IMG/VR virus record: IMGVR_UViG_3300031759_000027
Coordinates: 1 to 56,410 of that record
Direction: 5' to 3' (one strand)
DNA length: 56,410 nt
DNA from: a virus
Lineage: Duplodnaviria; Caudoviricetes
Below are positions 18 through 53,891 of this stretch, one piece after another. A model generated the notes under the pieces. The model made no database searches and was not told the DNA's origin. It was given only the letters and a program-made list of their open reading frames with translations. Numbering within the stretch: position 1 is the stretch's first letter; every line of letters begins with the position of its first letter. The position numbers were made by a program, and so were the translations under genes.

Positions 18-761
18 ATGGCAACTAAAAAAATAATTCCAATTAAGCAGATCACTGCGTGGTCATTTAGTCGTTACAGTACGTACAAATCTTGCCCGTT
101 AAAAGCAAAGCTGGCATTCATTGACAAGATCAGTGAACCACCAAATGATGCGATGGTACGTGGAACTAAGATTCATGAACTTGCTGAGGACTACATCAAA
201 GGCAAGATTAGAGCGCTTCCACCTGAACTGAAGCTCTTTAAAGATGACTTCAAGTTTTACAAGACGCAGTACAAGAAAAGCATCAGCGGCATGGTTGTTG
301 AGGACACCTGGTCTTTTAGAAAAGATTGGACTGAAACCCAATGGAATGATTGGGCAGGTTGTTGGGTTCGGATTAAGCTTGACTGCGCGCACCATGAAGA
401 TGATCAGACACTTATTATCACGGACTTTAAGACCGGTAAATACCGTCAACAATCAAATGAGGAATATGTTGAGCAGCTTGAGCTTTATGCGCTTGCAGCC
501 TTGTTGTTGCATCCACACATCGAGGTGGCTAAACCACGGCTTCAGTACTTAGATGAGGGCGTAACTTACCCACCAGCTGACGAAGATTCATTAGTATTCA
601 CGCGTGCTGATATTCCAAAGCTTAAAAAGCTCTGGGAGAAGCGCACCAAGGCAATGCTTAGTGACACAACTTTCGCGCCTAAGGCAAATAACTTCTGCAG
701 ATGGTGTTGGTATGGTCAAAGCAAGAAAGCTGCAGGTGGTCCAGGACTTTGCAAGTATTAG
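18..761 (+). CDS. PD-(D/E)XK RecB/Cas4-like exonuclease
   Basis: WSFSR..Y..CP, GTKIHE, KLD...ITDFKTGK, QL..YAL motifs; C-terminal CRWC...C (possible Fe-S ligands). Confidence 0.85.
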   Translation: MATKKIIPIKQITAWSFSRYSTYKSCPLKAKLAFIDKISEPPNDAMVRGTKIHELAEDYIKGKIRALPPELKLFKDDFKFYKTQYKKSISGMVVEDTWSFRKDWTETQWNDWAGCWVRIKLDCAHHEDDQTLIITDFKTGKYRQQSNEEYVEQLELYALAALLLHPHIEVAKPRLQYLDEGVTYPPADEDSLVFTRADIPKLKKLWEKRTKAMLSDTTFAPKANNFCRWCWYGQSKKAAGGPGLCKY

Positions 762-2510: not shown

Positions 2511-2590
2511 TTTGTAAATATGTGTTTACAAAGTGATTGTGAAGCACTATACTAATCATGTAGTCACTAATTAACTCTTGCTGAGGAAAT
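2511..2590 (+). promoter_or_regulatory. Early sigma70-type promoter copy 1 with palindrome and CTTGCTGAGG leader box
   Basis: TTTACA 2525-2530, 17 bp, TATACT 2548-2553; TTGTAA-N8-TTACAA over the -35; AATTAACTCTTGCTGAGGAAA before ATG 2595. Confidence 0.85.
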
Positions 2591-2994: not shown

Positions 2995-3012
2995 CTCTTG
3001 CTGAGGAAAACC

Positions 3013-24915: not shown

Positions 24916-24916
24916 G

Positions 24917-26144: not shown

Positions 26145-26150
26145 TAGGAG

Positions 26151-26528: not shown

Positions 26529-26530
26529 GA

Positions 26531-27010: not shown

Positions 27011-27018
27011 GATAGTTC

Positions 27019-27243: not shown

Positions 27244-27245
27244 GA

Positions 27246-27458
27246 TTAGCTCTTTAGAACACGTTGAATTTCAGCCCAGATGCCAGGACCACGAAAGTTT
27301 CCACCAATTGAATAGGCTTCTTTTTTCAAGTCTTCTTTAAGTTTACGAGCTTTCTCTACGACTTCTTTGCGGCGACGCTCCTCATCAGGACCAATGGTGC
27401 CATCTGGGTTCGCGTCTTTTGCACGGCTACTTAGGTGGATATGGATGTGCTTGGTCAT
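27246..27458 (-). CDS. HIHIH-leader protein 2
   Basis: MTKHIHIHLSSRAKDA. Confidence 0.75.
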   Translation of the reverse strand: MTKHIHIHLSSRAKDANPDGTIGPDEERRRKEVVEKARKLKEDLKKEAYSIGGNFRGPGIWAEIQRVLKS

Positions 27459-27883
27459 AGGATTTTTTCAGCCCCAATAATAGAGCCCATGTCAAGTTTG
27501 TGCAACTCTTTTGAGAGATCTTGTTCAGTCAACTTGTCAACTTTTGGTGCAAGTTCATTTGCGTCACGCAAAACAGCCGAGAGCTTTGCTTTGAGCTGCG
27601 CTAAAGAATCAATCTTAGCGATCAAGTTCTCAATACGCCTTGGCAAATTTTTTGCAAGTCTGGCGTTATAGCCTTCTGCATCTTTTGCTTTTTTATCATT
27701 AGCACGCTTCGCACGAAGATCATTATGACCTTTAGACCAGTCTAAATGCTCTTGTGTACCCTTCTCGTATGGGTTCTCATCGTACTTTACGCCTTTGGTC
27801 GCAGCCATCGAACCTTCGTTGTAGTGCTGCTTTGCGTCTCGTGCTTTCGCAGGACCTAAATGAATGTGAATGTGCTTGGCCAT
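27455..27883 (-). CDS. HIHIH-leader protein 1 with Rmf/CrpP-like segment
   Basis: MAKHIHIHLGPAKARDA; Y.EG..A...G.....NPY..G......W..G; internal KAKDA. Confidence 0.75.
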   Translation of the reverse strand: MAKHIHIHLGPAKARDAKQHYNEGSMAATKGVKYDENPYEKGTQEHLDWSKGHNDLRAKRANDKKAKDAEGYNARLAKNLPRRIENLIAKIDSLAQLKAKLSAVLRDANELAPKVDKLTEQDLSKELHKLDMGSIIGAEKIL

Positions 27884-27885
27884 GG

Positions 27886-28128
27886 TTAAGCCTCCGAGCT
27901 TGATTCTTCACCACCACGATGAGCCCAATATTTCTTGTTCTCTTCGTTAATCGTTGCCAAGGTTACGTGCTCAGGCACGCATTCGACAACTGTTGGTTCG
28001 TATTCGTCGTTTGCGCGCTGAGTCTCGTAAGCGATTGCTGCCGCCTGCTTAGGATCTTTGCCATGCTTGATCTCTGTCGCAATATTCTCTTTTAATGCTT
28101 TTTCTGAACTTCCTTGAATTAACGGCAT
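27886..28128 (-). CDS. Conserved small phage protein
   Basis: MPL..GSS.....NI..E...GK..KQA.AIA pattern; AAGGAG SD. Confidence 0.7.
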
Positions 28129-40018: not shown

Positions 40019-41506
40019 TTATCTCCCAAGTTTTTGCCAGATGGCAAGGGTTGATGAAACAACTAAAAATTCGTTGATCGCGTCAATCATTGGATCGATT
40101 TGATCGTCATGCATGTGCGAATCGTCTGCAGTAAAACTTTCGCACTCGGTGATGAAGTCGTTGAGCCAAGGTGCATTTTTAGGCAGATGGACCTTTCCAG
40201 CTTCGATGTACCCGACCACGTCGAGCACCCTGGTGTACTTGTCTTTTGTCCGTTCGACACCTTCAACAAGCACTAGGCCTTCTGACTTCATGTCTTGGAT
40301 CAATCCAGTTCCTGATGCCTTGTCTTCGATTTTCATTTTACGAAGAACACCCAATTCTGGGCCATTCAGTGCTTTGTGCTTTTGCCAGAAAGTCACAGCT
40401 CGTCTGCGAAGTTCTGGAGCTTCCCACTTGCCCCGAATCAAGTCAATCAGATACGCATTGCCATCAACACCTGCTCCCCAACACTCAAACACCGAATAAT
40501 CGTTTCGTTCTGCTGTCTTTTGTGCAGTATCTGCGAAGATTATACGATGCTTTATAACTGGAAGAGTTTCATAGAGCCTAAAATACTGACCCTTGATAAT
40601 CTCGCCACCTTCAATTTGCGGATTTTGTTGGTACAACGCTTCAAAGTTCAACGTGCCCATGATGGTCCGGCGTTCTTCTAAGAATTCTTTGCTCTTTAAT
40701 TGTGGAAAAAGGGCTTCACCGACTTCACGGTGCTCATCACTCTTTGTGGCAAGCGCTGGGTAGGAAAGGCTTTTAATCTGGTCGCCAAATGTAAGCTTCA
40801 AGCGGCCAATTGGATCATCAATGTGCCAACGTGTCATGATGGCTAGCAGCCCAGCATCTTCACTAAATCGGGTGAAGAAGTCATCGGTAAACCATTCCCA
40901 AGTTTTCTCACGTACAAGAGCAGACCTTGCATCTTCGCGCCCCTTGATCGGATCATCAATGATGCCTAAGTCTAAGGATTCACCGGTGATCTGTCCACGC
41001 ACGGTGGTGTTTCTGAAATAACCTAACCTGCCCATGAACTCAATGAGGCTGCGATTTCTTGTGGACCAGGTGCCTGATGAGCCTGAGCTGATGATGGTCT
41101 CAGGGAAAATGGCCTTGTAAATGTCAGACTCCATGATGCGTTGAATCTGCAAGTTAGCTCGTTCACCAAGGCGGTCAGAGAATGAGGTGTAGATGGTCTT
41201 GCAATCTGGGTTCTTACCAGCAAGCCAAGTCACAAAGTCCACAACTACCCAGGACTTACCATGTTGTGGAGGTGCTTCGATGCAAAGCTTTGGGCGCAGT
41301 CCGCCAACCAGGTCCTCGTAGAATTCTTGCAGTTGACCGGTCACTTCTTGGATAAACCACCCCTGCTTCATGGTGGGGCGGATCAACTTGCGGTATTCGA
41401 AGAACGAGTCCCTAGCCGGGCGGTAGAGGTTTAATTCAGCCTCGATCTGATCGTACAGTCGTTGAAGTTTTTGCCGATCATACTGATCAAGCGTCGTCTT
41501 TTCCAC
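40019..41506 (-). CDS. terL: Terminase large subunit
   Basis: PPQHGKS Walker A, IIDDP.K Walker B, TRWH..D, ALYQQ.P, DTA.K...D.S, IEDKASG, HDDQ.D. Confidence 0.95.
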   Translation of the reverse strand: MEKTTLDQYDRQKLQRLYDQIEAELNLYRPARDSFFEYRKLIRPTMKQGWFIQEVTGQLQEFYEDLVGGLRPKLCIEAPPQHGKSWVVVDFVTWLAGKNPDCKTIYTSFSDRLGERANLQIQRIMESDIYKAIFPETIISSGSSGTWSTRNRSLIEFMGRLGYFRNTTVRGQITGESLDLGIIDDPIKGREDARSALVREKTWEWFTDDFFTRFSEDAGLLAIMTRWHIDDPIGRLKLTFGDQIKSLSYPALATKSDEHREVGEALFPQLKSKEFLEERRTIMGTLNFEALYQQNPQIEGGEIIKGQYFRLYETLPVIKHRIIFADTAQKTAERNDYSVFECWGAGVDGNAYLIDLIRGKWEAPELRRRAVTFWQKHKALNGPELGVLRKMKIEDKASGTGLIQDMKSEGLVLVEGVERTKDKYTRVLDVVGYIEAGKVHLPKNAPWLNDFITECESFTADDSHMHDDQIDPMIDAINEFLVVSSTLAIWQKLGR

Positions 41507-41933
41507 TATTCACCCCAGCTTTGACCAATAGCGTTTTGAGTTGAGCCAGCTCAGAAGTTCCTAAATTTTGAAGGCCCCTGATGTCAAGGTTTAGTGGACG
41601 GTTTGGATCGCCACCTTCAATTGCAATTGGCATCTTCTTGTGGAGGTATGGCGCTGCGACCTTAGCCGCTTCGATTCTTGTGTCCATTGATTCGTCTTCA
41701 TCACGAGCAATTGAGATCAAAAGATAAAGCGGCGTGATGCCGTCAGTGGCCTCAGCTAATTTCTTTCGCTGCTCATTGGTCAGTATAGACCTTTTATTCA
41801 GTGAGCCCTTAGGCCGTCCCTTGGGGTTCAGAGGCCCAGTTCCTTTAACAAGGATGCCTTTTGCTCCATTCGTTCTGGTGACGGGCTTTGCGGCTTTGCG
41901 CTCTGATGTGTTTTGTGGAGCAGTATCTTCCAC
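41487..41933 (-). CDS. terS: Terminase small subunit
   Basis: NPKGRPKGSLNK, TP...L, R..AAK.AAPY.H; overlaps terL. Confidence 0.75.
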   Translation of the reverse strand: MEDTAPQNTSERKAAKPVTRTNGAKGILVKGTGPLNPKGRPKGSLNKRSILTNEQRKKLAEATDGITPLYLLISIARDEDESMDTRIEAAKVAAPYLHKKMPIAIEGGDPNRPLNLDIRGLQNLGTSELAQLKTLLVKAGVNSGKDDA

Positions 41934-42082
41934 GATTTTCTCCAGTAGTTTTCAAATAGACTTCACAAGACAGATATTACCACTTTCTATGGAGGTGTGA
42001 TTAAGACGCGGAATTTCGCCAAGAATGGGCTGAAATAGCAAACTCCACATGCTGCTACAGCATCTACTAGGGGGTACCGTCT

Positions 42083-42165
42083 CCTATTATATATACGTTA
42101 GATTAGATATTTATAATATAATTAAGATAATATATAAATAGGAAAGATAGTATATATATAATAGG
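42083..42165. repeat. Very AT-rich core bracketed by a 13-bp inverted repeat
   Basis: CCTATTATATATA 42083-42095 / TATATATAATAGG 42153-42165 in the divergent intergenic region. Confidence 0.8.
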
Positions 42166-42259
42166 GGATGGGGCCCTAAGCAGCTTGGTGTAGCGGGCAA
42201 AGCGCAAGGCTCTACGAACAAACATCTTGCAAATCAAGTACTTATAGGAAAACTACATA

Positions 42260-42739
42260 ATGTCCACAAAACCGACAACTACGCAACTAGAAGCGGCATT
42301 TCATGAAATTATTATCAAACTGCCACGTGCAAAGCGCAAGGAGCTTAGTCCACAAATTGAAGTTTTTAAGTCCTTTTTAGGTATTACTAAGGACATCGTA
42401 AACCTCGATCGTCGCTCGTTGACCTGGGCGCCTGGTAGCGAGACACGAAAAGCTGTGGAGGAAAATCGTAACCTTGAGCTCATTTTTAGAGGTGCTGACG
42501 TCATTAAATGCAACATCTATGAAGCTTCAAAGCTGCTAAATAAACCAGTTCATTCGATCAGAGTTCTTTTAGGCCGTGGTGAAGGCAAGTGGTTTGGGCA
42601 GGTCAAAGGTGAAGATGGTGAGGTAGACTTTGCGCAGCTCTATAAACTAGACAGTGAAGGTAAAAGAATCTATCAAGCTCCTGTTGCTAAGCCGAAAAAA
42701 TCAGAGTTCCAAGTTCCTGAGGGGTCAAGGTCTTACTAA
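42260..42739 (+). CDS. Hypothetical protein
   Basis: AGGA SD; 159 aa ORF. Confidence 0.7.
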   Translation: MSTKPTTTQLEAAFHEIIIKLPRAKRKELSPQIEVFKSFLGITKDIVNLDRRSLTWAPGSETRKAVEENRNLELIFRGADVIKCNIYEASKLLNKPVHSIRVLLGRGEGKWFGQVKGEDGEVDFAQLYKLDSEGKRIYQAPVAKPKKSEFQVPEGSRSY

Positions 42740-42749
42740 GCTCCATATA

Positions 42750-42778
42750 TTTACGATTGATTTTACATGCGCTATTAT
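42750..42778 (+). promoter_or_regulatory. Putative sigma70 promoter for structured RNA/primase
   Basis: TTTACG, 17 bp, TATTAT; predicted +1 falls at the base of the 12-bp stem. Confidence 0.55.
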
Positions 42779-42784
42779 CGATCC

Positions 42785-42861
42785 TGCCAGTTGAGCCGAA
42801 TGTCTACTACCTACAAGGTAGTTTGTCAAAAGCCCTCAGCAAGCCCATCGCTCAACTGGCA
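42785..42861 (+). ncRNA. Candidate 77-nt antisense/regulatory RNA
   Basis: Perfect 12-bp closing stem TGCCAGTTGAGC/GCTCAACTGGCA, inner hairpin ACTACC/GGTAGT, exposed CCTCAGCAAG. Confidence 0.6.
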
Positions 42862-42945
42862 CCTTCTTATTGGCTGAGCAAAAGAAGAAAGCGAGTCCGC
42901 TGAGGGGACATTGACAATTAGACAGATAACCGGGAAATAATAATT

Positions 42946-45078
42946 TTGGCAACTAAACAAACGAAAAGATCTCCATCAGAGATCCTTGGTAAGCCGTCAG
43001 CTGAGTTAAAAGCTGCTGACCTTGGCTTATTAAAGTTAGCAAGTTCAGGCCTAGATCTTGATGACGCTAAAAAGTTGAGCATGTCCTTCTTAGGTCCAAT
43101 CTCCACAAGTAAGCTGCATCCCTCGTTCAAGGCGCTTAGTGCGTTAAAGATTGATTATCTTGGCATCGATGGTAAGCCCATCAGTGACTGGCACGCAGCA
43201 CCACCCTTCTACCGCATCAGGTACTTAGAAGCCGGAACTGGTTTTGATGCCATTAGTGTGAAGAAAGAAATCAGGTATACCCAAGAACCAAATACAGCTC
43301 CAGTTGCCTACTACCCTGGTAATTGTGACTGGACGAAAATTTCAAAGAACGTTGATGTGCCAATCATCATCACTGAAGGTGAGCTGAAAGCTGCAAAGGC
43401 CTGCAAGGAAGGTTTTCCGACCATTGGCCTTGGTGGTGTCTATAACTGGCGAAGCGCAAAACTGGGGTTAGGTTGGTTGCCAAGCCTAGAGCTCATTGAT
43501 TGGAAGCGGCGCAATATCTACATTTGCTTTGACTCAGACTACCAAACAAATCCGATGGTGTGTGCTGCTTTAAAAGAGCTTGCTGATGAGCTAGAGCGGC
43601 GCGGCAGCTTTGCGCACATCGTCACGCTACCTAGCCTTGATGGCTTAGAAAAGGTTGGTCTTGATGACTTCTTAGTGCATGCTGGTGTTGATGCGAATGA
43701 TCAGTTTGCAAATTTGTTACGTGTTGCTGAGCCACTTGGCATGGCCAAGGTGCTGTTCGCGTTTAATGAGAAATATGTGTATGCTGACAGTCCTGGCCTG
43801 ATTGTGAATCAGGAGACGAGTCAGAAGATTAGCCCATCTGCGTTTAAGGACCACTTAGAATCGGTGGCAAACTATCAGGAGCGGAAGCTGAAGGCCGATG
43901 GTTCAGTTGTCTTTCAAACTGTATCAGCCGGAGGAGCTTGGATTAAGTGGCCACTCAGGCAACGAGTTGATAAGATTACTTATGTGCCAGGAGCCGAGCG
44001 CTTTGTGCATGGTGAGAACCGCGTGATGCTGAATACCTGGCCAGGTTGGGGTTGCGAACCGAAAGCCGGTGATGTGCAGCCGTTCTTAGATTTGCTTGAT
44101 CACATCTTTAAGGGTGCTGAATCAGGCGCCTTGCAGTGGTTCTTACGTTGGTGCGCCTATCCAATTCAGTACCCAGGGACGAAGTTGTTTAGTAGTGCGG
44201 TGATTCATGGTATTAGACACGGAACTGGTAAGTCACTCATTGGCTATACGTTAGGTAGGATCTACGGCAAGAACTTCACTGAGATCAGCCAAATGGACTT
44301 GCACAACGGCTTTAATGAGTGGGCAGAGTCGAAGCAGCTGGCCATGGGCGATGACGTGACAGGTAGTAATAAACGGGCTGATGCCGACTTCTTGAAGAAG
44401 CTGATCACGCAGCGTGAGCTTAGGATTAACGCGAAGTTTATTCCTAGCTACACGGTCCCTGATTGCCTGAACTACTTCTTTACAGCAAACCATCCTGACT
44501 CGTTCTTTTTAGAAGACGACGATCGGCGGATGTTTGTGCATGAGGTGCATGTTGGTCCCTTGCCAGAACAGTTCTATATGGAATATGACCTGTGGCTAGA
44601 TACTGGCGGTGCTGAGGCGATCTTTCATTACTTGCTGAACTTAGATCTTGGTGACTTCAATCCAGCAGCTCCTGCCTTTAAGACAGCTGCGAAAGAGCGC
44701 ATGATCAGCAACGTGCAGAGTGACTTAGCCGGTTGGGTTCGCAGCTTACAATCTGTTCCTGATCACGTCCTTAAGGTTGGTGAGATTGTGGTGAACAAGG
44801 ACTTGTTTACAAGTAAAGAGTTGCTGCAGTTCTATGATCCATCTGGAAAGACCGGCACGACAGCAAATGGCCTGGGCCGTGAACTTGCCAGAGCAGGAAT
44901 TCGTCAGGTGATTAGCGGCAAGCCCGTTAGGTTGGCTGATGGTAGTCAAGCCAGGTACTACGCCGTGCGAAATGCTGACCACTGGTTAACAGCTGGAATA
45001 GCAGATGTGACAAGCCACCTGAATGCCTGGAACAAGGGGCATGGCGCCGGAAGCCCAGTGAAAGCTGCAAAGTACTAG
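42946..45078 (+). CDS. Primase-helicase (Toprim DUF3854-like plus SF3-like NTPase)
   Basis: ITEGELKA, IGLGGV, FDSD, GLDD; GTGKS Walker A, TANH...DDRR; TTG start. Confidence 0.88.
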   Translation: MATKQTKRSPSEILGKPSAELKAADLGLLKLASSGLDLDDAKKLSMSFLGPISTSKLHPSFKALSALKIDYLGIDGKPISDWHAAPPFYRIRYLEAGTGFDAISVKKEIRYTQEPNTAPVAYYPGNCDWTKISKNVDVPIIITEGELKAAKACKEGFPTIGLGGVYNWRSAKLGLGWLPSLELIDWKRRNIYICFDSDYQTNPMVCAALKELADELERRGSFAHIVTLPSLDGLEKVGLDDFLVHAGVDANDQFANLLRVAEPLGMAKVLFAFNEKYVYADSPGLIVNQETSQKISPSAFKDHLESVANYQERKLKADGSVVFQTVSAGGAWIKWPLRQRVDKITYVPGAERFVHGENRVMLNTWPGWGCEPKAGDVQPFLDLLDHIFKGAESGALQWFLRWCAYPIQYPGTKLFSSAVIHGIRHGTGKSLIGYTLGRIYGKNFTEISQMDLHNGFNEWAESKQLAMGDDVTGSNKRADADFLKKLITQRELRINAKFIPSYTVPDCLNYFFTANHPDSFFLEDDDRRMFVHEVHVGPLPEQFYMEYDLWLDTGGAEAIFHYLLNLDLGDFNPAAPAFKTAAKERMISNVQSDLAGWVRSLQSVPDHVLKVGEIVVNKDLFTSKELLQFYDPSGKTGTTANGLGRELARAGIRQVISGKPVRLADGSQARYYAVRNADHWLTAGIADVTSHLNAWNKGHGAGSPVKAAKY

Positions 45079-45123
45079 GTATTTCACCGGTTTGAAGCTA
45101 GTAAATGTATTAGGCTGATTATT

Positions 45124-45203
45124 TTGTAAATAAGTGTTTACAAGGCTACTTTTAGGCACTATACTAGCCCTGTAGTAACAAATTAACTCTTGCTGAGGAA
45201 AAC
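45124..45203 (+). promoter_or_regulatory. Early promoter copy 2 with palindrome and CTTGCTGAGG box
   Basis: TTTACA 45137-45142, 17 bp, TATACT 45160-45165; same palindrome and leader as copy 1. Confidence 0.85.
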
Positions 45204-45207
45204 ACAA

Positions 45208-45558
45208 ATGAAACAGATTTATAGTCACTTGATACCCTGTGAGGATCACGTGTATGTAACAGACAACTTTGGTATCTACGACCTTAAGGGCCGTGAAATT
45301 GGAGCCATCTACACGATTAGCCATTGCGAGTTTGTTGAGTACGATCCTGTTGCTCATAAGAACTATGGGTCACGCGCAATTTTACCTGGGAAGTACTTCT
45401 TTACGAACGCGCAAGCTGCTAGAGACGGCTACGCGTATGGAGCTTGTCAACCATCGAAGTTCTTTAAAACAATTGAAGAAGCGCAGCGTGAAATTGCTAG
45501 GTATTTAGGAGTTGCGAAGCTTTACGCCTTTAAGAAATACGCGAAGGAGCAAGCATGA
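45208..45558 (+). CDS. Hypothetical early protein
   Basis: ATG 45208 after conserved leader box. Confidence 0.7.
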   Translation: MKQIYSHLIPCEDHVYVTDNFGIYDLKGREIGAIYTISHCEFVEYDPVAHKNYGSRAILPGKYFFTNAQAARDGYAYGACQPSKFFKTIEEAQREIARYLGVAKLYAFKKYAKEQA

Positions 45559-45854
45559 GCTGCATTAAAACTGGCTGCACCGTGCTGGCCAATGGAAAGT
45601 ATTATCACGGCGATTTGTTTTTAAGTTCATTTGGTTTTGAGCTGCGTGGTGTGCCTGAAGGTGGTGATGGCTATGAACCAAACGGACTTCATCATTGTGA
45701 AGTTTGCGAAGTTGGTGGTGTTGAGCTTGCAAAAACTTCTGGTGGGTACAAACTTTTTTGGATTCATGGATGGCTAACTGCTACAAAAGAGTTTTACAAG
45801 TATCTTCAACAATGGGAACCTGCAGCAGTTCAATACTTCAAGGTGGCAGAATGA
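45555..45854 (+). CDS. Hypothetical protein
   Basis: AAGGAG SD, ATGA overlap. Confidence 0.65.
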   Translation: MSCIKTGCTVLANGKYYHGDLFLSSFGFELRGVPEGGDGYEPNGLHHCEVCEVGGVELAKTSGGYKLFWIHGWLTATKEFYKYLQQWEPAAVQYFKVAE

Positions 45855-46120
45855 ACTTAAATCTTTCGCCAGAAGATCTTGCTGAATATACAAGACGATG
45901 CTTAGAGAATGAAATCAACAAGCAAGCTGCGATAGCTTGTGGCAACGTGCAAGGCGCAAAGCGCGCAAGACAAGCCAATACGTATCTTTATAAAGAGTTC
46001 GCAAAGCGTCAACTTCCTCCGTCACCACCAACACCGTGGGAGCGTGAACAATCAATGAGCTTAGAGGATCGGATAAGCCGCATTGAGCAACATTTAAAAC
46101 TAGGAGTTTGGTCAGAATGA
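45851..46120 (+). CDS. Hypothetical protein
   Basis: ATGA overlap at 45851 (MNLNLSPED...). Confidence 0.6.
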   Translation: MNLNLSPEDLAEYTRRCLENEINKQAAIACGNVQGAKRARQANTYLYKEFAKRQLPPSPPTPWEREQSMSLEDRISRIEQHLKLGVWSE

Positions 46121-46317
46121 AAATCATTGAAACCAAAGAAGGAAGGGCTGTGTTTTCATTTAACGGCAGAGTGCACCCTGCAAAGCTGCTTAGATATGAG
46201 AACAATCAGTTCGAGTTGAAGCTCACGTGCTCTTGTCCTGATACTCAGAAGCTGAATGGTGTTCGCTTCTTAGAAGGACGTGATGGCATAAATTGCTTAG
46301 GATCTAGGAGACATTGA
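46117..46317 (+). CDS. Hypothetical protein
   Basis: ATGA overlap, GGAG SD. Confidence 0.55.
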   Translation: MKIIETKEGRAVFSFNGRVHPAKLLRYENNQFELKLTCSCPDTQKLNGVRFLEGRDGINCLGSRRH

Positions 46318-46318
46318 G

Positions 46319-46921
46319 ATGGCTAGAAAAAACGAGCGAGTTGAGACGTACATCCCAGATCTTGAAGGTGAGATTTGGAAACCTGTTGAAGGTTACGAAG
46401 ATGCTTATCATGTTTCAAATATGGGGCGCGTGAAATCATTAGATAGAGAAATTTTGACCTCACATGGAAATGTTCGCTGGGTAACTGGTAGGCTGTTAAC
46501 AGTGTCGCATGGAAAACTTGGACATCGAAAAAGTGGTGTAAACACTGGAACAGTAGTTTTTTCAAGTTGTGGCGAAAAAATTGTAGTTGTTGTTTCAAGA
46601 TTGGTGTTAAAACATTTTGTAAGTACTCCAGAAAATTTAAAAAACTTGTGGGCTATTCATCGTGATGGTAATGTAAAAAATAATTGCGTAAAAAATCTTT
46701 TTTGGGGTACTGAAAAAGAAAGCATTGACGAAAAATATAAACGCGGTAATGGCCATGAAGGTATTAAGCACCCGCACGCCAAAATAACAGATGCGCAAGT
46801 TCTTGAAGTTAGAAGACGATTTGAAGCAGGTGAAAAACAGTGCCATATAGCACGTTCAATGCAACTAACAGATAAGCTTGTTTGGAAACTTGTGCATAAA
46901 AAAGAATGGAAACATATTTAA
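46319..46921 (+). CDS. NUMOD4-HNH homing endonuclease-like protein
   Basis: EIWKPV.GYE..Y.VSN.GRVKS (NUMOD4), HRDGN..NN...NL.WGT, C-terminal HTH-like tail. Confidence 0.85.
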   Translation: MARKNERVETYIPDLEGEIWKPVEGYEDAYHVSNMGRVKSLDREILTSHGNVRWVTGRLLTVSHGKLGHRKSGVNTGTVVFSSCGEKIVVVVSRLVLKHFVSTPENLKNLWAIHRDGNVKNNCVKNLFWGTEKESIDEKYKRGNGHEGIKHPHAKITDAQVLEVRRRFEAGEKQCHIARSMQLTDKLVWKLVHKKEWKHI

Positions 46922-46939
46922 CGTAAAGGAGAAGTAAAA

Positions 46940-47329
46940 ATGGCAACAAAGAAATTAGCAACGGCAGCAGAACTTGAAGCAAGCGCAAAAAAGACTGAAA
47001 AAAGAGTTTGGGGAAATAATCCATCAACAGCTCTTGTTGATGAGGTGGTGGTAGATCACCCACTTTATGACATCATGATAGCTGCAATCAATCAAGCCAT
47101 GTATGGCAAGGGTGAGCGCCACGGCGGCAACGTGACCCCGTTCATGGACCAGCCTTGGGTACATTACTCAAAGCTGCATGGTCGTGGATTCTTAACTGGT
47201 CAAGCAGCAAAGAAGTTAGAAGAAGCTGCATCGCAGCGAACTGGTGAGGCATTTGAGGCCGAGGTGCTTGGAGCTATCGTCTACGCAGCTATGGCAATTC
47301 TGAAAGACCGCGAGGATCAGGCGAAATGA
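46940..47329 (+). CDS. Conserved alpha-helical phage protein, possible nucleotide pyrophosphohydrolase
   Basis: GKGERH....F..QP...GQA.KK..EA...LGAI.Y pattern; function tentative. Confidence 0.5.
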   Translation: MATKKLATAAELEASAKKTEKRVWGNNPSTALVDEVVVDHPLYDIMIAAINQAMYGKGERHGGNVTPFMDQPWVHYSKLHGRGFLTGQAAKKLEEAASQRTGEAFEAEVLGAIVYAAMAILKDREDQAK

Positions 47330-47439
47330 CATTTGAAGAATTTGCGATTGGTTTTTGTTTAATCTGCGCTATGTGGGCATGCAGCCTTGTAGCTGTTGGA
47401 GTTACTTATGTCGTTTACAAGCTTTGGACGGATTGAACC

Positions 47440-47640
47440 ATGAGAACCCTTGATGCGATTTGGTATGCACCAGGAATGAGCTGCATTGGAATTGTCCGAG
47501 CTGAAGATCCAATTGGAGGACCTAGGTACTACATTGGTGTTGCAGGTGGTGAAGATGAGCAAGCGGACATGGAGTTTATTGCAGCTCATGGAGCAAAGTT
47601 CAGCTGGAATGCCGGACGACTATTGTTTGGAGATAAGTAA
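47440..47640 (+). CDS. Hypothetical protein
   Basis: Packed ORF; YIGVA.G.DE..D...I...GAKF. Confidence 0.55.
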   Translation: MRTLDAIWYAPGMSCIGIVRAEDPIGGPRYYIGVAGGEDEQADMEFIAAHGAKFSWNAGRLLFGDK

Positions 47641-47858
47641 TGAAGCAAATTAAAAAGGTTGTGGTTTACTACGATGATGGTACGTATGTTGAGCTTGCAA
47701 ACAATCCTTGGAATACAGCGATGGCAAGACCTATAGAGCATATCCATACGCCGCACCCAAGATGTACATGCATACTTTGCGGTGGTTCTGACCATGCTGT
47801 AACCTGCAAACATACTTCGCATTACCAAACGACTAAAACAACAGGGGCGGCTTCATAA
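47640..47858 (+). CDS. Hypothetical protein
   Basis: TAATG coupling, GGAG SD. Confidence 0.5.
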   Translation: MKQIKKVVVYYDDGTYVELANNPWNTAMARPIEHIHTPHPRCTCILCGGSDHAVTCKHTSHYQTTKTTGAAS

Positions 47859-47996
47859 TGTGCCTTAAATCAAGCGGTGAGTATCAGTACTGTCTACTAA
47901 AGCGCAAGGTAGCTCAATGCAAAGCAGATTGGGAAAGTTCAATTGCTTACCTGATTGCTAAACGTCGAGGTTGGTTAGAACTATTAGAGGAAGACT

Positions 47997-48296
47997 ATGA
48001 AGCCAGGACCGTTTGAAATTATGGGCCTTGAGCTCACATCAACGCCCGAAGAGGTGAAGCAACGATGGCGAGATCTTTGCATGATCCATCATCCTGATCG
48101 GCCAACGGGGAATGCTGTTGAGTTTAATACCATCAGGCAAGCTTATAAGAAATGCATGGCAATCGCTTTGGAGCCGAAGCTTTGCGCTGATTGCAAGGGA
48201 TCTGGTAAGGTAAGGATTCAGCACGGGTTTAATACAACTGAGATTGTTTGCGGTGAGTGCAAAGGAGTAGGCCATGAGTTACCTAATCAGAAATGA
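47997..48296 (+). CDS. Mini DnaJ-like protein (J domain plus zinc finger)
   Basis: HHPDR motif; two CxxCxGxG repeats. Confidence 0.85.
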   Translation: MKPGPFEIMGLELTSTPEEVKQRWRDLCMIHHPDRPTGNAVEFNTIRQAYKKCMAIALEPKLCADCKGSGKVRIQHGFNTTEIVCGECKGVGHELPNQK

Positions 48297-48434
48297 GGAC
48301 AACGAGGTGATGCGTGTTGTAGGCCGCTTAGAGGAGGCTCAGATCATTTGCGCCCTTCGTCCTGGCTGGACGTTTAAGCGAGTCCTTGAAAGAAGACCTA
48401 AAAGAGATCTGAGTATATTTGAGGAGGCGTTATT

Positions 48435-48803
48435 TTGAACACCCCAATTAGCCGCGAAGAAGCTGAGGAAATAATGCTAGACGGCCATCAAAAGTATTGG
48501 TATGACAAGGGCGTTGCTTCTGCACAAACTGAGCTTGAGTACCGTAAGAAAGATAATAAGGAACTTCATGAAGAGATTTGGCAGTTAGAGGACAAAATAG
48601 CTTCATTAGAAGCGCAGTTAAGAAGAAAGCCAATATTTGAAATAAGACATCACGTTGCTTCTGCGCAGGCTGAAATAGAGGCGTTTAAAGCAAATGTGAA
48701 AGTTGTGTTAGATGCAGTTTTATATGAATATGGGTCTACGACTAACATGGTTGACGAACTTGCAAATGCTACTATTGAATTGCAGAAAAGGATAGAAAAA
48801 TGA
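48435..48803 (+). CDS. Hypothetical coiled-coil protein
   Basis: GAGGAGG SD, TTG start; repeated VASAQ.E. Confidence 0.6.
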   Translation: MNTPISREEAEEIMLDGHQKYWYDKGVASAQTELEYRKKDNKELHEEIWQLEDKIASLEAQLRRKPIFEIRHHVASAQAEIEAFKANVKVVLDAVLYEYGSTTNMVDELANATIELQKRIEK

Positions 48804-48939
48804 GCGAAATTATTTATACTTGGATCTGGCTATTTATTGCTTTTCTAATAGTTCATCCATGGGCTGCAGTAGTTCTTTATTTAATCGCAGGTTTATGCGT
48901 GTGGGATTTTATTTATACATTACATAGGACACAAGAAAA

Positions 48940-49674
48940 ATGATATTTCAATTTCCAAAAAAGAAAATAGTTTTAGATTGCTTTACAGCAGACGAAGTGG
49001 CTATTAGAACAGCCCCAATAGATTTTGCAATTAAGCACATGCCTGAATGGTGGCAAGATTTACCAGCTACATACACGCGAGATTCATTTCCATTTGGCAC
49101 TATGAAGAACTGCGCTGGCATGGTTGACTTCTACAGGTATTCAATCGCTATTCCAATGTGGTCAGACCTAGTAATAAGCATCGGGAAAAATCAATTTAGC
49201 TGGAAATTTTCTGACTATATGTCTAGCGCAGATTTGCATAACACTGCTCAAGAAGCAACAGGATTTTTGCCGCCAAACTACAACCATCTAAAGTTAATAT
49301 CACCGTGGCATTTATCATGCAAGCAGTCTATTAACTGGTTATGGAACACTCCGTTGTATAACCTAAATAAAAATCCTGATATTTTAATTCCTCCTGGAAT
49401 TGTGAACTATTCAAAGCAAAACATAACGAATGTAAATATTCTATTCAACACAGAAAAAGAGCGCGTTATTAAATTGGCTCAGGGGTCACCTATTGCCATG
49501 ATTACCCCTATGACAGATAGAAAAATAGAAATCGTAAGGCATTTAGTATCAAGGCAAGAACTAGAACGAAAATCAAGAATACTTATCACCTTTAATCGAC
49601 CGTATGATCGCCGCAATGAATTAGTTAAAAAGTTTAAAGATTGTCCGTTTCATAATCATGTGGGAAGAAAATGA
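48940..49674 (+). CDS. Hypothetical beta-rich protein
   Basis: P.WW, T.K.C.G..D, IP.W.D, K..SPW, PG.V, G.P.A...P pattern. Confidence 0.65.
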   Translation: MIFQFPKKKIVLDCFTADEVAIRTAPIDFAIKHMPEWWQDLPATYTRDSFPFGTMKNCAGMVDFYRYSIAIPMWSDLVISIGKNQFSWKFSDYMSSADLHNTAQEATGFLPPNYNHLKLISPWHLSCKQSINWLWNTPLYNLNKNPDILIPPGIVNYSKQNITNVNILFNTEKERVIKLAQGSPIAMITPMTDRKIEIVRHLVSRQELERKSRILITFNRPYDRRNELVKKFKDCPFHNHVGRK

Positions 49675-49853
49675 ATACTAGAATCCTTGAAGTTTTACAA
49701 GAGGTAATGTGCACATGCAATTTATCAGAAGAGCAGAAAAACGCGCTGCACTTATCAATTACAAGTCTTCTTCAACTTAAACTAGAGAACAAGACATTGC
49801 GTGAAAGAAATCAATATCTAGAAGCCCAAGTTTACGGAGGATCTACAAAATGA
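49671..49853 (+). CDS. Hypothetical protein
   Basis: ATGA overlaps. Confidence 0.55.
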   Translation: MNTRILEVLQEVMCTCNLSEEQKNALHLSITSLLQLKLENKTLRERNQYLEAQVYGGSTK

Positions 49854-50041
49854 CAACGTTTACTGGTGACGAATATGGCGGACCTGAATTGCAGATTGGT
49901 AAGTACCGCCTAAGGTCTAACCTAACAAACTCAAAGATCCACATCAGCTTAATGGATGGTGATCGGTTTGTTGAAGCCGGGCAATTTAGCGCAAAGCAGC
50001 TAGAAGCTGTGATTGACCAGTTTTATAAGGAGAAGTTCTGA
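49850..50041 (+). CDS. Hypothetical protein
   Basis: GGAGG SD, coupled to ligase. Confidence 0.6.
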   Translation: MTTFTGDEYGGPELQIGKYRLRSNLTNSKIHISLMDGDRFVEAGQFSAKQLEAVIDQFYKEKF

Positions 50042-50946
50042 TGTCTGAATTTAAACCCATGCTTGCCAGCCCGACTGATGGTCACAAGCTTACGTTTCCG
50101 ATGCTAGTCAGCCCGAAGCTAGATGGCGTCAGGTGCCTGATCATCGACGGCGTGGCTATGAGCCGGTCACTCAAGCCCATTCCTAACAAGCACGTGCAAA
50201 AGCTGTTTGGGCGCAAGGACCTAAATGGCTTAGATGGCGAGCTGATTGTAGGACCACCAACTGCAAAAGATGTGTACAACAAAACCACGTCAGGCATCAT
50301 GACGATTGAAGGTGAGCCTGCAGTTAAGTTTTACGTGTTTGATGACTTTAGCGCCAAGGACAAGGTAAAAGAAAACTTGTTTGGTCAATCGTCTCATTTT
50401 GAACATCGATTGCTGAGTTCCATTAGAAGGATTACTTTAGAAGATAACTGTAAGGAAGTTAAGCACTACAAGGCAAATAACGAAGCTGATTTATTTCACT
50501 ATGAAGCCCACTTTTTAAAGCAAGGCTATGAGGGCATGATGCTTAGATTGCCAACTAGCCCATACAAATTTGGTAGATCTACTACTAAAGAGGCTTGGCT
50601 ACTAAAGCTAAAGAGGTTTATTGATAGTGAGGCCGAGATCATTGGCATGACTGAGCTCATGACAAACACCAATGAAGCGGTTAGAAATGAGCTGGGTCAT
50701 CTAGAGAGGTCCTCAAAGAAGGCTGGAATGAAGGGTAAAGATACCCTTGGGTCCTTGATTGTTAGAGATATTAAAACTAAGGTGGAATTTGAAATTGGAA
50801 CTGGGTTTACTGCAGAGCAGCGAGCTGGCATCTGGAAGCTAAACCCAATTGGAACACTTGTGAAATATAAGAGTCAACCTGTGGGCGTAAAAGATAAACC
50901 ACGCTTTCCGGTCTTTTTAGGCTTTAGAAACACAATAGACCTATAA
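50041..50946 (+). CDS. ATP-dependent DNA ligase
   Basis: PKLDGVR motif I, LDGEL, FYVFD, GYEG.M.R, LLKLK, OB-fold GTGF...RFP.F.GFR. Confidence 0.93.
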   Translation: MSEFKPMLASPTDGHKLTFPMLVSPKLDGVRCLIIDGVAMSRSLKPIPNKHVQKLFGRKDLNGLDGELIVGPPTAKDVYNKTTSGIMTIEGEPAVKFYVFDDFSAKDKVKENLFGQSSHFEHRLLSSIRRITLEDNCKEVKHYKANNEADLFHYEAHFLKQGYEGMMLRLPTSPYKFGRSTTKEAWLLKLKRFIDSEAEIIGMTELMTNTNEAVRNELGHLERSSKKAGMKGKDTLGSLIVRDIKTKVEFEIGTGFTAEQRAGIWKLNPIGTLVKYKSQPVGVKDKPRFPVFLGFRNTIDL

Positions 50947-50967
50947 CATGTACTAGGTACTAAAATA

Positions 50968-51042
50968 GTTGTAATTAGTTGTTTACAACAATAAAAGAAG
51001 CGCTGTAGAATAAAACTGTAATTAACTTGCTGAGGAAAAAAA
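50968..51042 (+). promoter_or_regulatory. Early promoter copy 3 with palindrome and CTTGCTGAGG box
   Basis: TTTACA 50982-50987, 18 bp, TAGAAT 51006-51011; GTTGTAA-N8-TTACAAC; AATTAACTTGCTGAGGAAA. Confidence 0.75.
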
Positions 51043-51044
51043 TC

Positions 51045-51191
51045 ATGTTTATTGAAGTTGTTGTGGTCATTGCTGCCACACTAGCCCTTATTAACTGGCT
51101 GCTCTTTGGGTCGTTGCCAGTCAACACCTTCCATTTCTATTTTGGCCTAGCCTTACTCATCATCACAATCAACAGAAAGAAAGACAAATGA
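51045..51191 (+). CDS. Small two-TM membrane protein (48 aa)
   Basis: Hand translation MFIEVVVVIAATLALINWLLFG...RKKDK; first gene after promoter 3. Confidence 0.65.
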   Translation: MFIEVVVVIAATLALINWLLFGSLPVNTFHFYFGLALLIITINRKKDK

Positions 51192-51427
51192 GCTTTAATC
51201 AATTTTCTAATACTCGTCAAGAAGGCGAGTCCTTTGATGACTATCGTCTGCGCCTAAGGTCAGAGAAGTTTCGTAAGCAACTAGTTAGCCGTGGTGTTCA
51301 AGTTTGGAATAGCGGCAAGCAAGGTACTTACACAAAGATCAAAGCGATGCAGCTAAAAGCAGCGCAAGCGATGGTTCAGATCGAAAAAGACAAGCAAGCT
51401 AAAAAAGAAGAGGTTAAAAATGGCTGA
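51188..51427 (+). CDS. Hypothetical basic protein
   Basis: ATGA overlap. Confidence 0.6.
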   Translation: MSFNQFSNTRQEGESFDDYRLRLRSEKFRKQLVSRGVQVWNSGKQGTYTKIKAMQLKAAQAMVQIEKDKQAKKEEVKNG

Positions 51428-51818
51428 GAAAGAGGTTGTTTATAAATTTCCTAAGGGTTTAGGCGCCTGCGCCGATAAGCTATATCAAATTAAGCAGAAG
51501 CGTCTAGACGCGCAAAAGATTGTTGATGCATTTGCAGCTGAAGAATCTGCTTTAAAGAATCACATCATTGAGAATCTTCCAAAGTCTGACGCATCAGGCA
51601 TTGCAGGTAAACTTGCTAGGGTAACTGTTGTAACTAAAGAGGTGCCACAAGTAACTGATTGGGACGCGCTTTATAAGTACGTTGTAAAGACCAAGGATTT
51701 CAGCTTGTTGCAGCGCCGTGTTGGTGATGCTGCCATTAAGGAGCGTTGGGAAGCAGGTAAGGAAGTCCCTGGTGTTGGTCACTTTAATGCCGTAACAGTT
51801 AGCATGAACAAGGTTTAA
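51420..51818 (+). CDS. Conserved phage replication/recombination-module protein
   Basis: Coiled coil then P.V.DW..LY.Y......LLQRR...G..VPGV; GAGG SD. Confidence 0.65.
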   Translation: MAEKEVVYKFPKGLGACADKLYQIKQKRLDAQKIVDAFAAEESALKNHIIENLPKSDASGIAGKLARVTVVTKEVPQVTDWDALYKYVVKTKDFSLLQRRVGDAAIKERWEAGKEVPGVGHFNAVTVSMNKV

Positions 51819-51820
51819 TT

Positions 51821-52033
51821 ATGAGGATCATTGCTCTAGCTCTCAGCGGCAACGTGTTTAGCGCAGTCAAGTGGATCAACGACAAGGTGCTTGGTCAACA
51901 CTTGCTGCAAGTAGATTGCCGCGATGGCTATAACACAGTTGCGGTCTTTAAATTTCCAGATTATCCAAGCTATGTCAGGTACTGTGAGAAGACAAAGCAA
52001 GAACCAATGAGTGCAGATGAATTTTTTAATTGA
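51821..52033 (+). CDS. Hypothetical protein
   Basis: Packed ORF. Confidence 0.55.
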   Translation: MRIIALALSGNVFSAVKWINDKVLGQHLLQVDCRDGYNTVAVFKFPDYPSYVRYCEKTKQEPMSADEFFN

Positions 52034-52039
52034 AGTAAG

Positions 52040-52102
52040 CAGTGTCCTTAGAGCCTGGTCTTTGGACACTGAACATTTAACCGCCAGGGACTAGTCACTA
52101 GT
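52040..52102 (+). promoter_or_regulatory. Candidate H-type pseudoknot in leader of SSB-like gene
   Basis: CAGTGTCC/GGACACTG stem; loop CCTGG pairs with downstream CCAGG. Confidence 0.5.
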
Positions 52103-52120
52103 TACTAATAGGAGCATCAA

Positions 52121-52984
52121 ATGGCAACAACAAAACGAGCAGCAACAAAAGACGCGGCAGCTAAGGGAACTGGCACCGCAATTACTAAATGGGAAGAAGA
52201 ACTTGCTAAGCAAGCTGATGTTGCATCAGCAATGGAAGCAAATGCTGGTGGAGGTCAGTTCTTTAGTTTAAAGTCAGGCATTCTCAGCTGGCAAGACGCT
52301 CCGCTGCCTGGAAATCAGATGGCAGTCATCATCGTTGACGGCATTCTTGAGAACGTGTTTTACGAAGGTGAATACGATCCAGATACCCCACAGGGACCAA
52401 CTTGCTTTGCGTTTGGGCGTGAAGAGAAAACAATCGCGCCGCATCAACTAGTTGTAGAGGCTGGCAATGCGCAGCATGATCAGTGTCATGGTTGCCCAAT
52501 GAATGAATGGGGTACAGCAGATAAAGGCAAGGGTAAAGCTTGTCGTAACAGCCGTCGCTTGGCGATGATTCCGGCTGGTAACTTTGACCAGGCGGGAAAG
52601 TTTCAACTGTTTGAAGATGAGGATCACTTTGCATCAACACCAATTGCGTTTATGAAGTTACCTGTGACCTCAGTAAAGGGTTATGCAGGCTTTGTTAAAC
52701 AAGTTGCTGGTGCACTTCGTCGTCCACCGCATGGCATCATCACGAAGGTGAAGGTTGTTCCAGATCCGAAGAGCCAATTCAAGGTGTTATTTGAGCCTAT
52801 CATGAATGTACCTGATGAGTACATGAGCATCGTCATGCAGCGCCATGAAGAAGGTAAATCAACTATTGACTTTCCATACCAACCGTTTGACGCTGAACAA
52901 GCACCAGCACCAAAAGCAAAGAGCCGCGCAGCTCAGCGCCCACCGGTAAAAGGTAAGCCAGCAGTTAAAGGTCGTAAGTATTAA
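52121..52984 (+). CDS. Putative zinc-binding single-stranded DNA-binding/annealing protein
   Basis: PTC...CHGCP.N.WG....GKGKACRN.RRL; replication-module position; function inferred. Confidence 0.55.
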   Translation: MATTKRAATKDAAAKGTGTAITKWEEELAKQADVASAMEANAGGGQFFSLKSGILSWQDAPLPGNQMAVIIVDGILENVFYEGEYDPDTPQGPTCFAFGREEKTIAPHQLVVEAGNAQHDQCHGCPMNEWGTADKGKGKACRNSRRLAMIPAGNFDQAGKFQLFEDEDHFASTPIAFMKLPVTSVKGYAGFVKQVAGALRRPPHGIITKVKVVPDPKSQFKVLFEPIMNVPDEYMSIVMQRHEEGKSTIDFPYQPFDAEQAPAPKAKSRAAQRPPVKGKPAVKGRKY

Positions 52985-52992
52985 GGTTTGAG

Positions 52993-53062
52993 CGGGAAAG
53001 AACCTCAGGACTAAAAGCAATGCTTTGGACAGCGGCGAATTTTAGTTCTGAGGATCGATCCG
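52993..53062 (+). ncRNA. Long intergenic hairpin A
   Basis: CCTCAGGACTAAAA 53003-53016 / TTTTAGTTCTGAGG 53040-53053 with inner and outer short helices. Confidence 0.55.
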
Positions 53063-53466: not shown

Positions 53467-53539
53467 GGGGTGAAAGCAATGACACTATTCAGCTCAAGTA
53501 CTCGAAGACGAACGACTAAAAAGACTTGCAAGTAACCCC
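53467..53539 (+). ncRNA. Structured intergenic element B with loop E-like internal loop
   Basis: GGGGT-GAAA-GCAA ... TTGC-AAGTA-ACCCC. Confidence 0.55.
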
Positions 53540-53560
53540 ACCCAATTTAGAAAGGTTGTT

Positions 53561-53775: not shown

Positions 53776-53872
53776 GGGGCAAAAGCGGATGCTGTGAATG
53801 GCAACCACTGGGAATTTCTTTAAGAAGGAAATTAAAGATTGCGACCCCAGCACAGACGCAGCGAGTAGCCCC
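53776..53872 (+). ncRNA. Structured intergenic element C, related to B
   Basis: GGGGC-AAAA-GC ... GC-GAGTA-GCCCC with inner CTGTG/CACAG, CTGGG/CCCAG, AATTTC/GAAATT helices. Confidence 0.65.
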
Positions 53873-53891
53873 ACCCATTTTAGGAGTTAAC

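Follow-up and report, generated by a model that had tools for sequence, protein, structure and literature searches.

The primase operon of the phage studied here begins with a structured RNA of about 78 nt, one hairpin loop of which is complementary to two sites further down in the same leader and to boxes in front of several early genes. Judged by sequence comparison, this element is a conserved phage RNA family that is absent from Rfam. On balance it probably acts as an antisense riboregulator of the c4/CI type, directed at the primase leader and at early-gene cassettes. The window mentioned below is the whole stretch of DNA that was analysed, which is a complete virus record of 56,410 bp with a G+C content of 44%.

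In the window, early and replication genes occupy the + strand from 42260 through the end of the record to about 10700, and those that could be named encode the primase, an SNF2 helicase, a PD-(D/E)XK nuclease, a ligase and a NUMOD4 endonuclease. The terminase and the late genes lie on the - strand from 10725 to 41933. The RNA element sits in a 206-nt gap between the gene at 42260-42739 (159 aa), which matched no known family in PHROG and Pfam profile searches, and the primase gene, whose homologues in the cultured phages AXL3 and PW916 are annotated as primase. A scan of 41500-46000 gave no terminator-like site between the RNA and the primase. The features of this locus were as follows:

42750..42778, + strand, sigma-70-type promoter of the RNA and primase operon (TTTACG, 17 nt, TATTAT; 9/12 in the consensus scan)
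42786..42863, + strand, structured RNA core with P1, P2, P3 and an ACC tail, delimited by the fold and the match of covariance model R1
42785/42786-42796 with 42850-42860/42861, + strand, terminal stem P1, 12 bp in the fold of the 77-mer, with covariation
42806-42822, + strand, hairpin P2, inside P1
42832-42844, + strand, mini-hairpin P3, inside P1, with a stem of only 2 bp in the window
42834..42842, + strand, putative seed, the 9-nt loop CCUCAGCAA of P3; the exact antisense 10-mer reaches 42843
42861-42863, + strand, single-stranded ACC tail directly after P1
42863..42887, + strand, hairpin H2 (CUUCUU/AAGAAG), putative first cis site, GCUGAG in the loop at 42873-42878
42895..42909, + strand, hairpin H3 (GUCC/GGAC), putative second cis site, GCUGAGG in the loop, Shine-Dalgarno-like
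42911..42940, + strand, possible leader ORF of 9 codons (TTG...TAA), which starts 5 nt after the GAGG of H3 and ends 5 nt before the primase start
42946..45078, + strand, primase-helicase gene, 710 aa, TTG start, weak ribosome-binding site, Pfam DUF3854 and DUF5906

The minimum free energy (MFE) of the 77-mer was -28.6 kcal/mol (z -4.77), and none of 200 shuffled sequences folded as well. The earlier note had described a 12-bp stem (42785-42796/42850-42861) enclosing a small hairpin and an exposed CCTCAGCAAG, directly behind a plausible promoter, and all of these parts were found in place. Since the opposite strand folded about equally well (z -4.13), the strand cannot be assigned from the fold alone. 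The sequence at 42834-42843 was predicted to be mostly unpaired in both 78-nt and 130-nt contexts, with a mean unpaired probability of 0.71 over 42833-42841, a range offset by one base from the loop of the family. When the leader was extended to 175 nt, the MFE structure paired the seed CCCUCAGC (42833-42840) in cis with GCUGAGGG (42899-42906) of H3 and opened P1, which is compatible with a purely cis-acting device. This complementarity spans 8 bp and gave a duplexfold energy of -19.1 kcal/mol. A tRNA or tmRNA identity was rejected, as ARAGORN detected neither in the window.

The same element heads the primase operon in dozens of uncultured phages as well as in the cultured AXL3 and PW916. Upstream of the relatives' primase the usual order is a promoter, a variable long stem, CCTCAGCAAG, the second arm of the stem, and CACCTTT. 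Relatives were collected through their primase, by a protein search and two alignment-based scans. The first primase scans yielded one viral-contig locus, which lacked the element, and none from metagenomes; megablast against cultured phages gave a 70-nt primase match and nothing else. Primase proteins with 82-88% identity exist; the alignment-based contig scans gave nothing above 72%. The best 80 of 130 primase relatives on viral contigs and the best 80 of 195 on metagenome contigs were used. The phage itself was near-clonal in lake-water metagenomes, with zero variants in 42000-53000 when four DNA runs were mapped, and therefore no covariation at the population level was usable.

Covariance model R1 was built from 21 of 61 relatives (alignment A4), with the window deliberately excluded. 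R1 found the window at 42782-42869 (40.3 bits, E 8.5e-8) and made no second match in it. Of 74 sources, 54 were matched at the syntenic place, as were 35 of another 80 loci; excluded from the 74-source search were L001, the chance loci L003-L018, and ten duplicates recognised by eye (L020, L023, L028, L036, L045, L053, L054, L078, L079, L092). Among the 20 sources without an R1 match, seven (L062, L068, L070, L071, L077, L080, L097) still showed the seed and P1 in the script analysis. R1 matches with E<0.01 in both searches gave 63 distinct copies. Alignments A3 and A6 held 42 of 61 and 35 of 63 sequences, respectively.

Stem P1 was the most strongly supported part of the fold. On the model-fitted alignment 97.1% of its cells were paired and 12 of its 12 pairs showed compensatory change; its covariation score was 0.883, compared with 0.214 after shuffling (0/500 as high) and 0.07-0.11 in slid registers. 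Because a model-fitted alignment leans to its model, the count was repeated on a plain MAFFT alignment of 35 sequences. There the hand-written structure P1+P2a+P3+H2 was paired in 80.7% of cells vs 63.3%, 24 of its 27 pairs were compensatory, and covariation reached 0.480 vs 0.218 (0/500). RNAalifold on the MAFFT alignments predicted P1 only; P3, P2a and H2 were written by hand and then tested. With an anchored script, P1 reached 12 bp or more in 51 of 61 relatives, compared with 13 of 552 cases for random places and 10 of 610 for shuffled sequences. Closing of P3 also covaried, with a mean of 3.97 bp vs 0.39 in shifted registers, and its loop CCUCAGCAA was identical in 58 of 62 distinct copies. 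P3 is joined to the second arm of P1 by a linker of 0-5 nt, and in the tail after P1 the A is present in 45, the first C in 50 and the second C in 52 of 55 aligned members. A like promoter was recognised in 45 of the 55 aligned relatives, and in 43 of these 45 its -10 hexamer ends 6-8 nt before the first base of P1. This placement suggests, from promoter prediction, that the RNA most likely begins at the transcription start, with little or no leader sequence ahead of it.

An Infernal/Rfam search had been proposed earlier for this RNA. No Rfam family reached its gathering score in the window or matched in eight diverse relatives; our own covariance model defines a conserved family. No printed description of the element was found in Rfam or in the full-text literature on AXL3 and on phage small RNAs acting on early genes, and the supplementary tables of PMC10914365 may contain candidates. 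In the available text of the AXL3 paper (PMC7504290) the words promoter, antisense, intergenic and small RNA do not occur.

A strict pattern of the family had 42 matches in viral contigs. It also had 24 matches in a set comprising one genome each of about 185,000 prokaryote species, which is about the number expected by chance by our own arithmetic, and R1 recognised one of these 24, on a 34-kb contig of a metagenome-assembled genome. The near-absence of this narrow pattern from prokaryote genomes fits a non-integrating lineage. AXL3 has been reported to be virulent, unable to lysogenise and with no lysogeny genes found, according to the available text (PMC7504290). The phage lineage is apparently virulent.

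Downstream of the RNA, the leader contains two partial copies of the sequence complementary to the seed, GCTGAG at 42873-42878 and GCTGAGGG at 42899-42906, which are the loop sequences of H2 and H3. Exactly two GCUGRG sites, displayed in hairpin loops within 125 nt downstream, were present in 52 of the 63 distinct copies. The stems around these sites vary from phage to phage and average 6.2 bp, compared with 3.3 bp around random-word controls. H2 was 79.8% paired, with compensatory change in 5 of its 6 pairs. MAFFT split H3 into two registers, and the conservation of H3 is accordingly taken from the anchored script alone. In 45 of 63 leaders the second site is followed, at a distance of 3-14 nt, by the start of a short ORF, and in three more by that of the long ORF itself; these counts ignore relatedness, and by our own arithmetic a start codon falls in such a 12-nt stretch by chance in about four of ten cases. 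In several relatives the leader ORF has 1-5 codons only.

The reverse complement of the seed 10-mer, CTTGCTGAGG, has five exact copies on the + strand of the window, four of which stand 6-9 nt before the ATG of a gene:

2525..2586, + strand, early promoter and leader (TTTACA at 2525, TATACT at 2548), box CTTGCTGAGG at 2577-2586 on the ribosome-binding site of gene 2595, duplexfold -18.4
2997..3006, + strand, box on the ribosome-binding site of gene 3013, the second gene of the 2595 operon, no promoter of its own seen
45137..45198, + strand, early promoter and leader (TTTACA-17-TATACT, 10/12), box at 45189-45198 on the ribosome-binding site of gene 45208
50982..51035, + strand, early promoter and leader (TTTACA at 50982, TAGAAT at 51006), box at 51026-51035 on the ribosome-binding site of gene 51045, duplexfold -19.3
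180..189, + strand, fifth exact copy of the 10-mer, inside the PD-(D/E)XK nuclease gene (18-761)

Near-consensus, repeated promoters of the form TTTACA-N17/18-TAnAnT precede the boxes at 2577, 45189 and 51026. With at most one mismatch, 11 box matches were counted where 4.58 were expected, and none of 100 shuffles reached 11. In duplex energy with the seed, the four start-linked boxes rank 2-5 among 92 candidate translation starts (-18.4 to -19.3; median -9.4), and one late gene without a box scores as well (-19.8). The box occurs at 4 of these 92 starts only, and the others use plain GGAG, AGGA or GAGG, by which the idea that the box is a general ribosome-binding habit of the phage was rejected. 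Genes 2595, 45208 and 51045 matched no PHROG or Pfam family, and gene 3013 had a single weak PHROG match of unknown function (E 0.0083).

Boxes of the type UGCUGAGG recur in the leaders of sigma-70-type early promoters in relatives that carry the RNA and are essentially absent from those without it. Across all loci the 8-mer TGCTGAGG was found in 164 distinct + strand contexts, distributed as follows:

cis leader, 38
5' leader downstream of a promoter, 35
ribosome-binding site downstream of a promoter, 31
ribosome-binding site, no promoter recognised, 23
elsewhere, 37

It was promoter-linked in 66 distinct + strand contexts, compared with 0-1 for five scrambled or altered control 8-mers; outside leaders it was about as frequent on the + strand (37) as on the - strand (40). 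At least one promoter-linked box was present in 58 of 95 RNA-bearing loci, as far as their flanks were examined, and in 7 of 58 loci scored as RNA-less. Inspection of these seven showed that four carry the RNA, two are truncated upstream of the primase, and the last is doubtful. When viral contigs were scanned with a 17-mer box, the outcome was 16 isolated matches in unrelated contigs, which were read as chance and discarded; by tblastx and blastn these contigs showed no likeness beyond a single 24-nt match, located in AT-rich coding sequence.

Most relatives have a syntenic box after the primase, yet the genes behind such boxes are not homologous; what is conserved is therefore the cassette itself. 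In the main clade this post-primase box sits at the extreme 5' end of the message, and some 40 nt separate it from the gene's AAGGAG. The box must then count as a separate site and not just as a ribosome-binding site, and occlusion of the latter cannot be the general mode. The flanks of the seed and those of the boxes did not covary significantly, the contiguity being 9.62 within the same phage and 9.22 across phages. The support is therefore one of co-conservation and not of compensatory seed-target change. That both seed and boxes are frozen is expected where one loop must fit many sites.

These results bear on several statements of the earlier note. Its claim that the box covers the Shine-Dalgarno sequences of genes 2595, 3013, 45208 and 51045, three of them behind repeated promoters, was exact for the window, and its list lacked the fifth copy at 180. 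Its placement of the box on the ribosome-binding site holds for these four genes, but in many relatives the box is found about 40 nt ahead of that site. The conserved structured RNA with an exposed loop matching early-leader boxes was interpreted correctly, but the two cis sites in the RNA's own primase leader had been overlooked. As for the comparison of seed and target in related phages, which it had put forward, the co-conservation was borne out and a covariation of the flanks was not.

The working model is as follows. The RNA of about 78 nt would be the 5' domain of the primase-operon transcript, starting at or next to the transcription start, and the P3 loop CCUCAGCAA would be the recognition element, pairing with two classes of sites. 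The nearest targets would be the H2 and H3 loops of its own leader. Pairing at the Shine-Dalgarno-like sequence of H3, ahead of the possible leader ORF, would lower the translation of the primase, in the way that c4 blocks icd and thereby ant. The second class would be the UGCUGAGG boxes that early promoters of the sigma-70 type have in their short leaders; as the four boxes of the window cover ribosome-binding sites, pairing there would block initiation. We infer the pairing in vivo, the action in trans (with the RNA freed from the mRNA or not) and the repressive effect.

Three other explanations were weighed against this model. In a leader acting purely in cis, the P3 loop would serve as an anti-Shine-Dalgarno sequence on H3, and on H2, and set the translation of the primase or of the leader ORF, while the other boxes would belong to a shared cassette that spread by promoter duplication and is never touched by the RNA. 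This is rather unlikely, though several points favour it: CCCUCAGC and GCUGAGGG are paired in the MFE structure of the 175-nt leader, the RNA lacks its own terminator and starts where the primase message starts, no target is as constant as the cis sites (two of them in 52 of the 63 copies), and flank covariation with the trans boxes is absent. However, P1, P3 and H2 covary as separate hairpins, which argues that the hairpin form has been selected. From relative to relative, promoter-linked boxes at unlinked loci go together with the RNA, and they persist before non-homologous genes and in places that are not ribosome-binding sites, so that a mere Shine-Dalgarno habit offers no explanation; elsewhere in the window, genes have plain GGAG, AGGA or GAGG and lack the box.

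Alternatively, GCUGAGG may be the site of a phage protein, bound on RNA (H2, H3 and the early leaders) or as a DNA operator, the P3 loop being incidental or a decoy. With 6-30 nt between them and the -10 hexamer upstream, the boxes are placed where an operator could be; the H2 and H3 loops display the motif like many protein-binding RNA sites, and the upstream gene at 42260-42739 belongs to no known family. Yet the motif is short, asymmetric, single in each leader and variable in its distance from the promoter. Moreover, the invariant element of P3 is the complement of the box and not a copy of it, and it is displayed in the loop of a covarying hairpin, which RNA-RNA pairing explains at once and a protein site leaves unexplained. 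The c4-like layout, matched feature by feature, also speaks against a protein site, which we regard as improbable. A functionless chance hairpin with a chance 10-mer match can practically be dismissed. Although the reverse strand folds about as well, and by our own arithmetic the expectation for any one 10-mer is about 0.05 per strand over 56 kb, a model built without the window found the window at E 8.5e-8, and the covariation, the invariance of the loop, and the enrichment and co-occurrence of the boxes would all have to be coincidental.

The layout of the antisense riboregulator proposed here matches that of c4 in phage P1, with its a2/b2 sites and icd. The C4 RNA of phages P1 and P7 belongs to the immI operon (c4-icd-ant). 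According to the available text of PMC5320573, RNase P has been reported to trim c4 to about 77 nt, and one of the loops to occlude ribosome-binding sites in part. P1 c4 is annotated with 77 nt, a size similar to the core of about 78 nt in the window. Both fold into a long terminal stem enclosing two hairpins, both have an unpaired 3' ACC after the terminal stem (the annotated c4 ends in ...GCCACC), and both appear to use a 9-nt hairpin loop as recognition element. In c4 the ACC tail matters for RNase P. In both, two complementary sites lie directly downstream in the same transcript, the second over a GAGG Shine-Dalgarno sequence before a small ORF that, judged by sequence, would be tied to the next gene. 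According to the P1 record, a2 follows 4 nt after c4, b2 follows 29 nt after the start of a2, and icd follows 10 nt after b2, with the remark that icd is 'apparently required for expression of ant'. The corresponding order in the window is the RNA, 10 nt, site 1, site 2 at 26 nt from start to start, 4 nt, the short ORF and the primase.

Several differences from c4 were also evident. One loop would serve both sites here, which share a GCUGAG core, whereas c4 uses two distinct elements. The 5' end is predicted to be set by the promoter here, while c4 lies 120 nt downstream of its -10 hexamer and needs RNase P. The analogy to c4 and CI that the earlier note had drawn stood up in detail as far as c4 is concerned, except that this RNA is most likely not cut from a leader at its 5' end. 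The gene controlled would be the primase instead of an antirepressor, and additional unlinked early promoters would be targeted. Furthermore, P1 is temperate, whereas AXL3 has been reported to be virulent in the available text of PMC7504290. As for descent, the Rfam C4 model (RF01695; threshold 45 bits) found P1 c4 at 68.8 bits, but with this model neither 42600-43050 nor the whole record had a match at E<=10, nor had any of eight relatives one at E<=1. In the reverse direction, R1 ranked c4 top in 3 kb of P1, with the P1 stem and the CACCU tail in register, as a weak match (11.4 bits, E 0.027). The element may be a distant relative of c4, yet it fails the C4 family's own model.

The CI RNA of the satellite phage P4 is nearest in biology. 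The P4 operon includes the alpha primase. As described in the available text of PMC4825925, CI derives from the untranslated leader with which the replication operon begins, pairs with two complementary sites in the same transcription unit and in this way holds the phage's own replication genes down. The sites seqA and seqC flank CI, whereas both sites lie downstream here, where the predicted transcript starts at P1; and CI acts by premature transcription termination in the lysogen, whereas neither termination nor lysogeny is indicated here. For virulent Pseudomonas phages, an ONT-cappable-seq survey reported short non-coding RNA candidates derived from 5'UTRs and conserved among relatives (PMC10914365). 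In the available text of that survey these candidates come from transcript mapping, none of them belongs to the present phage group, and no seed/target system is described.

From temperate phages and phage-plasmids, antisense RNAs of the c4/CI type are well known as regulators of immunity. The present family places the c4 design in three new circumstances, namely in a lineage that is widespread, mostly uncultured and shows no sign of lysogeny, at the front of a replication operon, and along with putative unlinked early-gene targets. It also shows that the design is older, or was reinvented more often, than one would gather from the Rfam family. If the pairing is real, it would define an early regulon that can be read from sequence in phages whose early genes are otherwise unknown, add an RNA family of 63 distinct copies to Rfam, make AXL3 or PW916 a cultured entry point, and provide a simple, portable seed/box pair for phage engineering.

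A bolder version of the model, which we consider doubtful, is that one invariant 9-nt loop serves as the master post-transcriptional switch of a virulent phage lineage, throttling the primase operon, shutting off the box-bearing early cassettes and possibly silencing superinfecting relatives. Both the loop and the boxes were unchanged between phages whose primases are only 50-70% identical, so that a resident RNA could silence the early genes of superinfecting relatives. If true, this would amount to a c4-type immunity without lysogeny, and to one that is family-wide instead of strain-specific as in P1 and P7.

In three relatives an extra gene was found to be inserted between the leader, which consists of the c4-like structured RNA and the two hairpins just downstream of it (H2 and H3), and the primase gene, so that the order reads leader, extra gene, primase. 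The inserted genes are about 170 codons long and abundant in cysteine pairs, and occupy the following positions within each locus:

L026, 2468-3000: extra gene between leader and primase
L046, 2471-3000: extra gene between leader and primase
L037, 2419-3000: extra gene between leader and primase

Because this gene separates the two, the RNA/H2/H3 leader was regarded as part of the operon start and not of primase as such. In the region of P2, one of the two hairpins enclosed by the terminal stem of the RNA, GUCUCC is preserved as a further pyrimidine word in most members of the main clade, with GGUCC(R)CGUC after it (e.g. L029 2862-2898). The GUCUCC word, which is not kept in the window, may act as a second seed or make a tertiary contact.

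A fifth exact copy of the box, the 10-mer complementary to the seed in the P3 loop of the RNA, lies at 180-189 within a PD-(D/E)XK nuclease gene (18-761) and may be either a target or a chance match. Among the early genes, 46319-46921 encodes a protein with a NUMOD4 motif, of the sort that occurs in homing endonucleases.

In three sequencing runs there are metagenome contigs whose match to the phage ends at 53480-53550 and 53776-53875, beyond which they continue as unlike sequence, and 53794-53853 is replaced by alternative short inserts. Directly after both divergence points stands a repeated leader word, CCCCACCCA(A/T)TTTAG, which precedes the genes that start at 53561 and 53892. The two intervals look like module-exchange junctions common to related phages.

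In the gap where the small terminase gene on the - strand diverges from the first gene on the + strand, a stretch of alternating TA-type sequence with extremely high AT content was seen (42060-42180). On either side of it stands a GC hairpin, the two being alike in sequence (about 42068-42086 and 42162-42178). The arrangement may represent an origin or a packaging site, or else two terminators placed back to back.

Four late genes with - strand starts at 24893-27891 have a common repeated start region (repeat family D1), which reads on the - strand ...AGCTAATCATG and is followed by first codons that are alike. Since most of these starts are without a Shine-Dalgarno sequence and adjoin the preceding stop codon, translational coupling of these genes is suggested.
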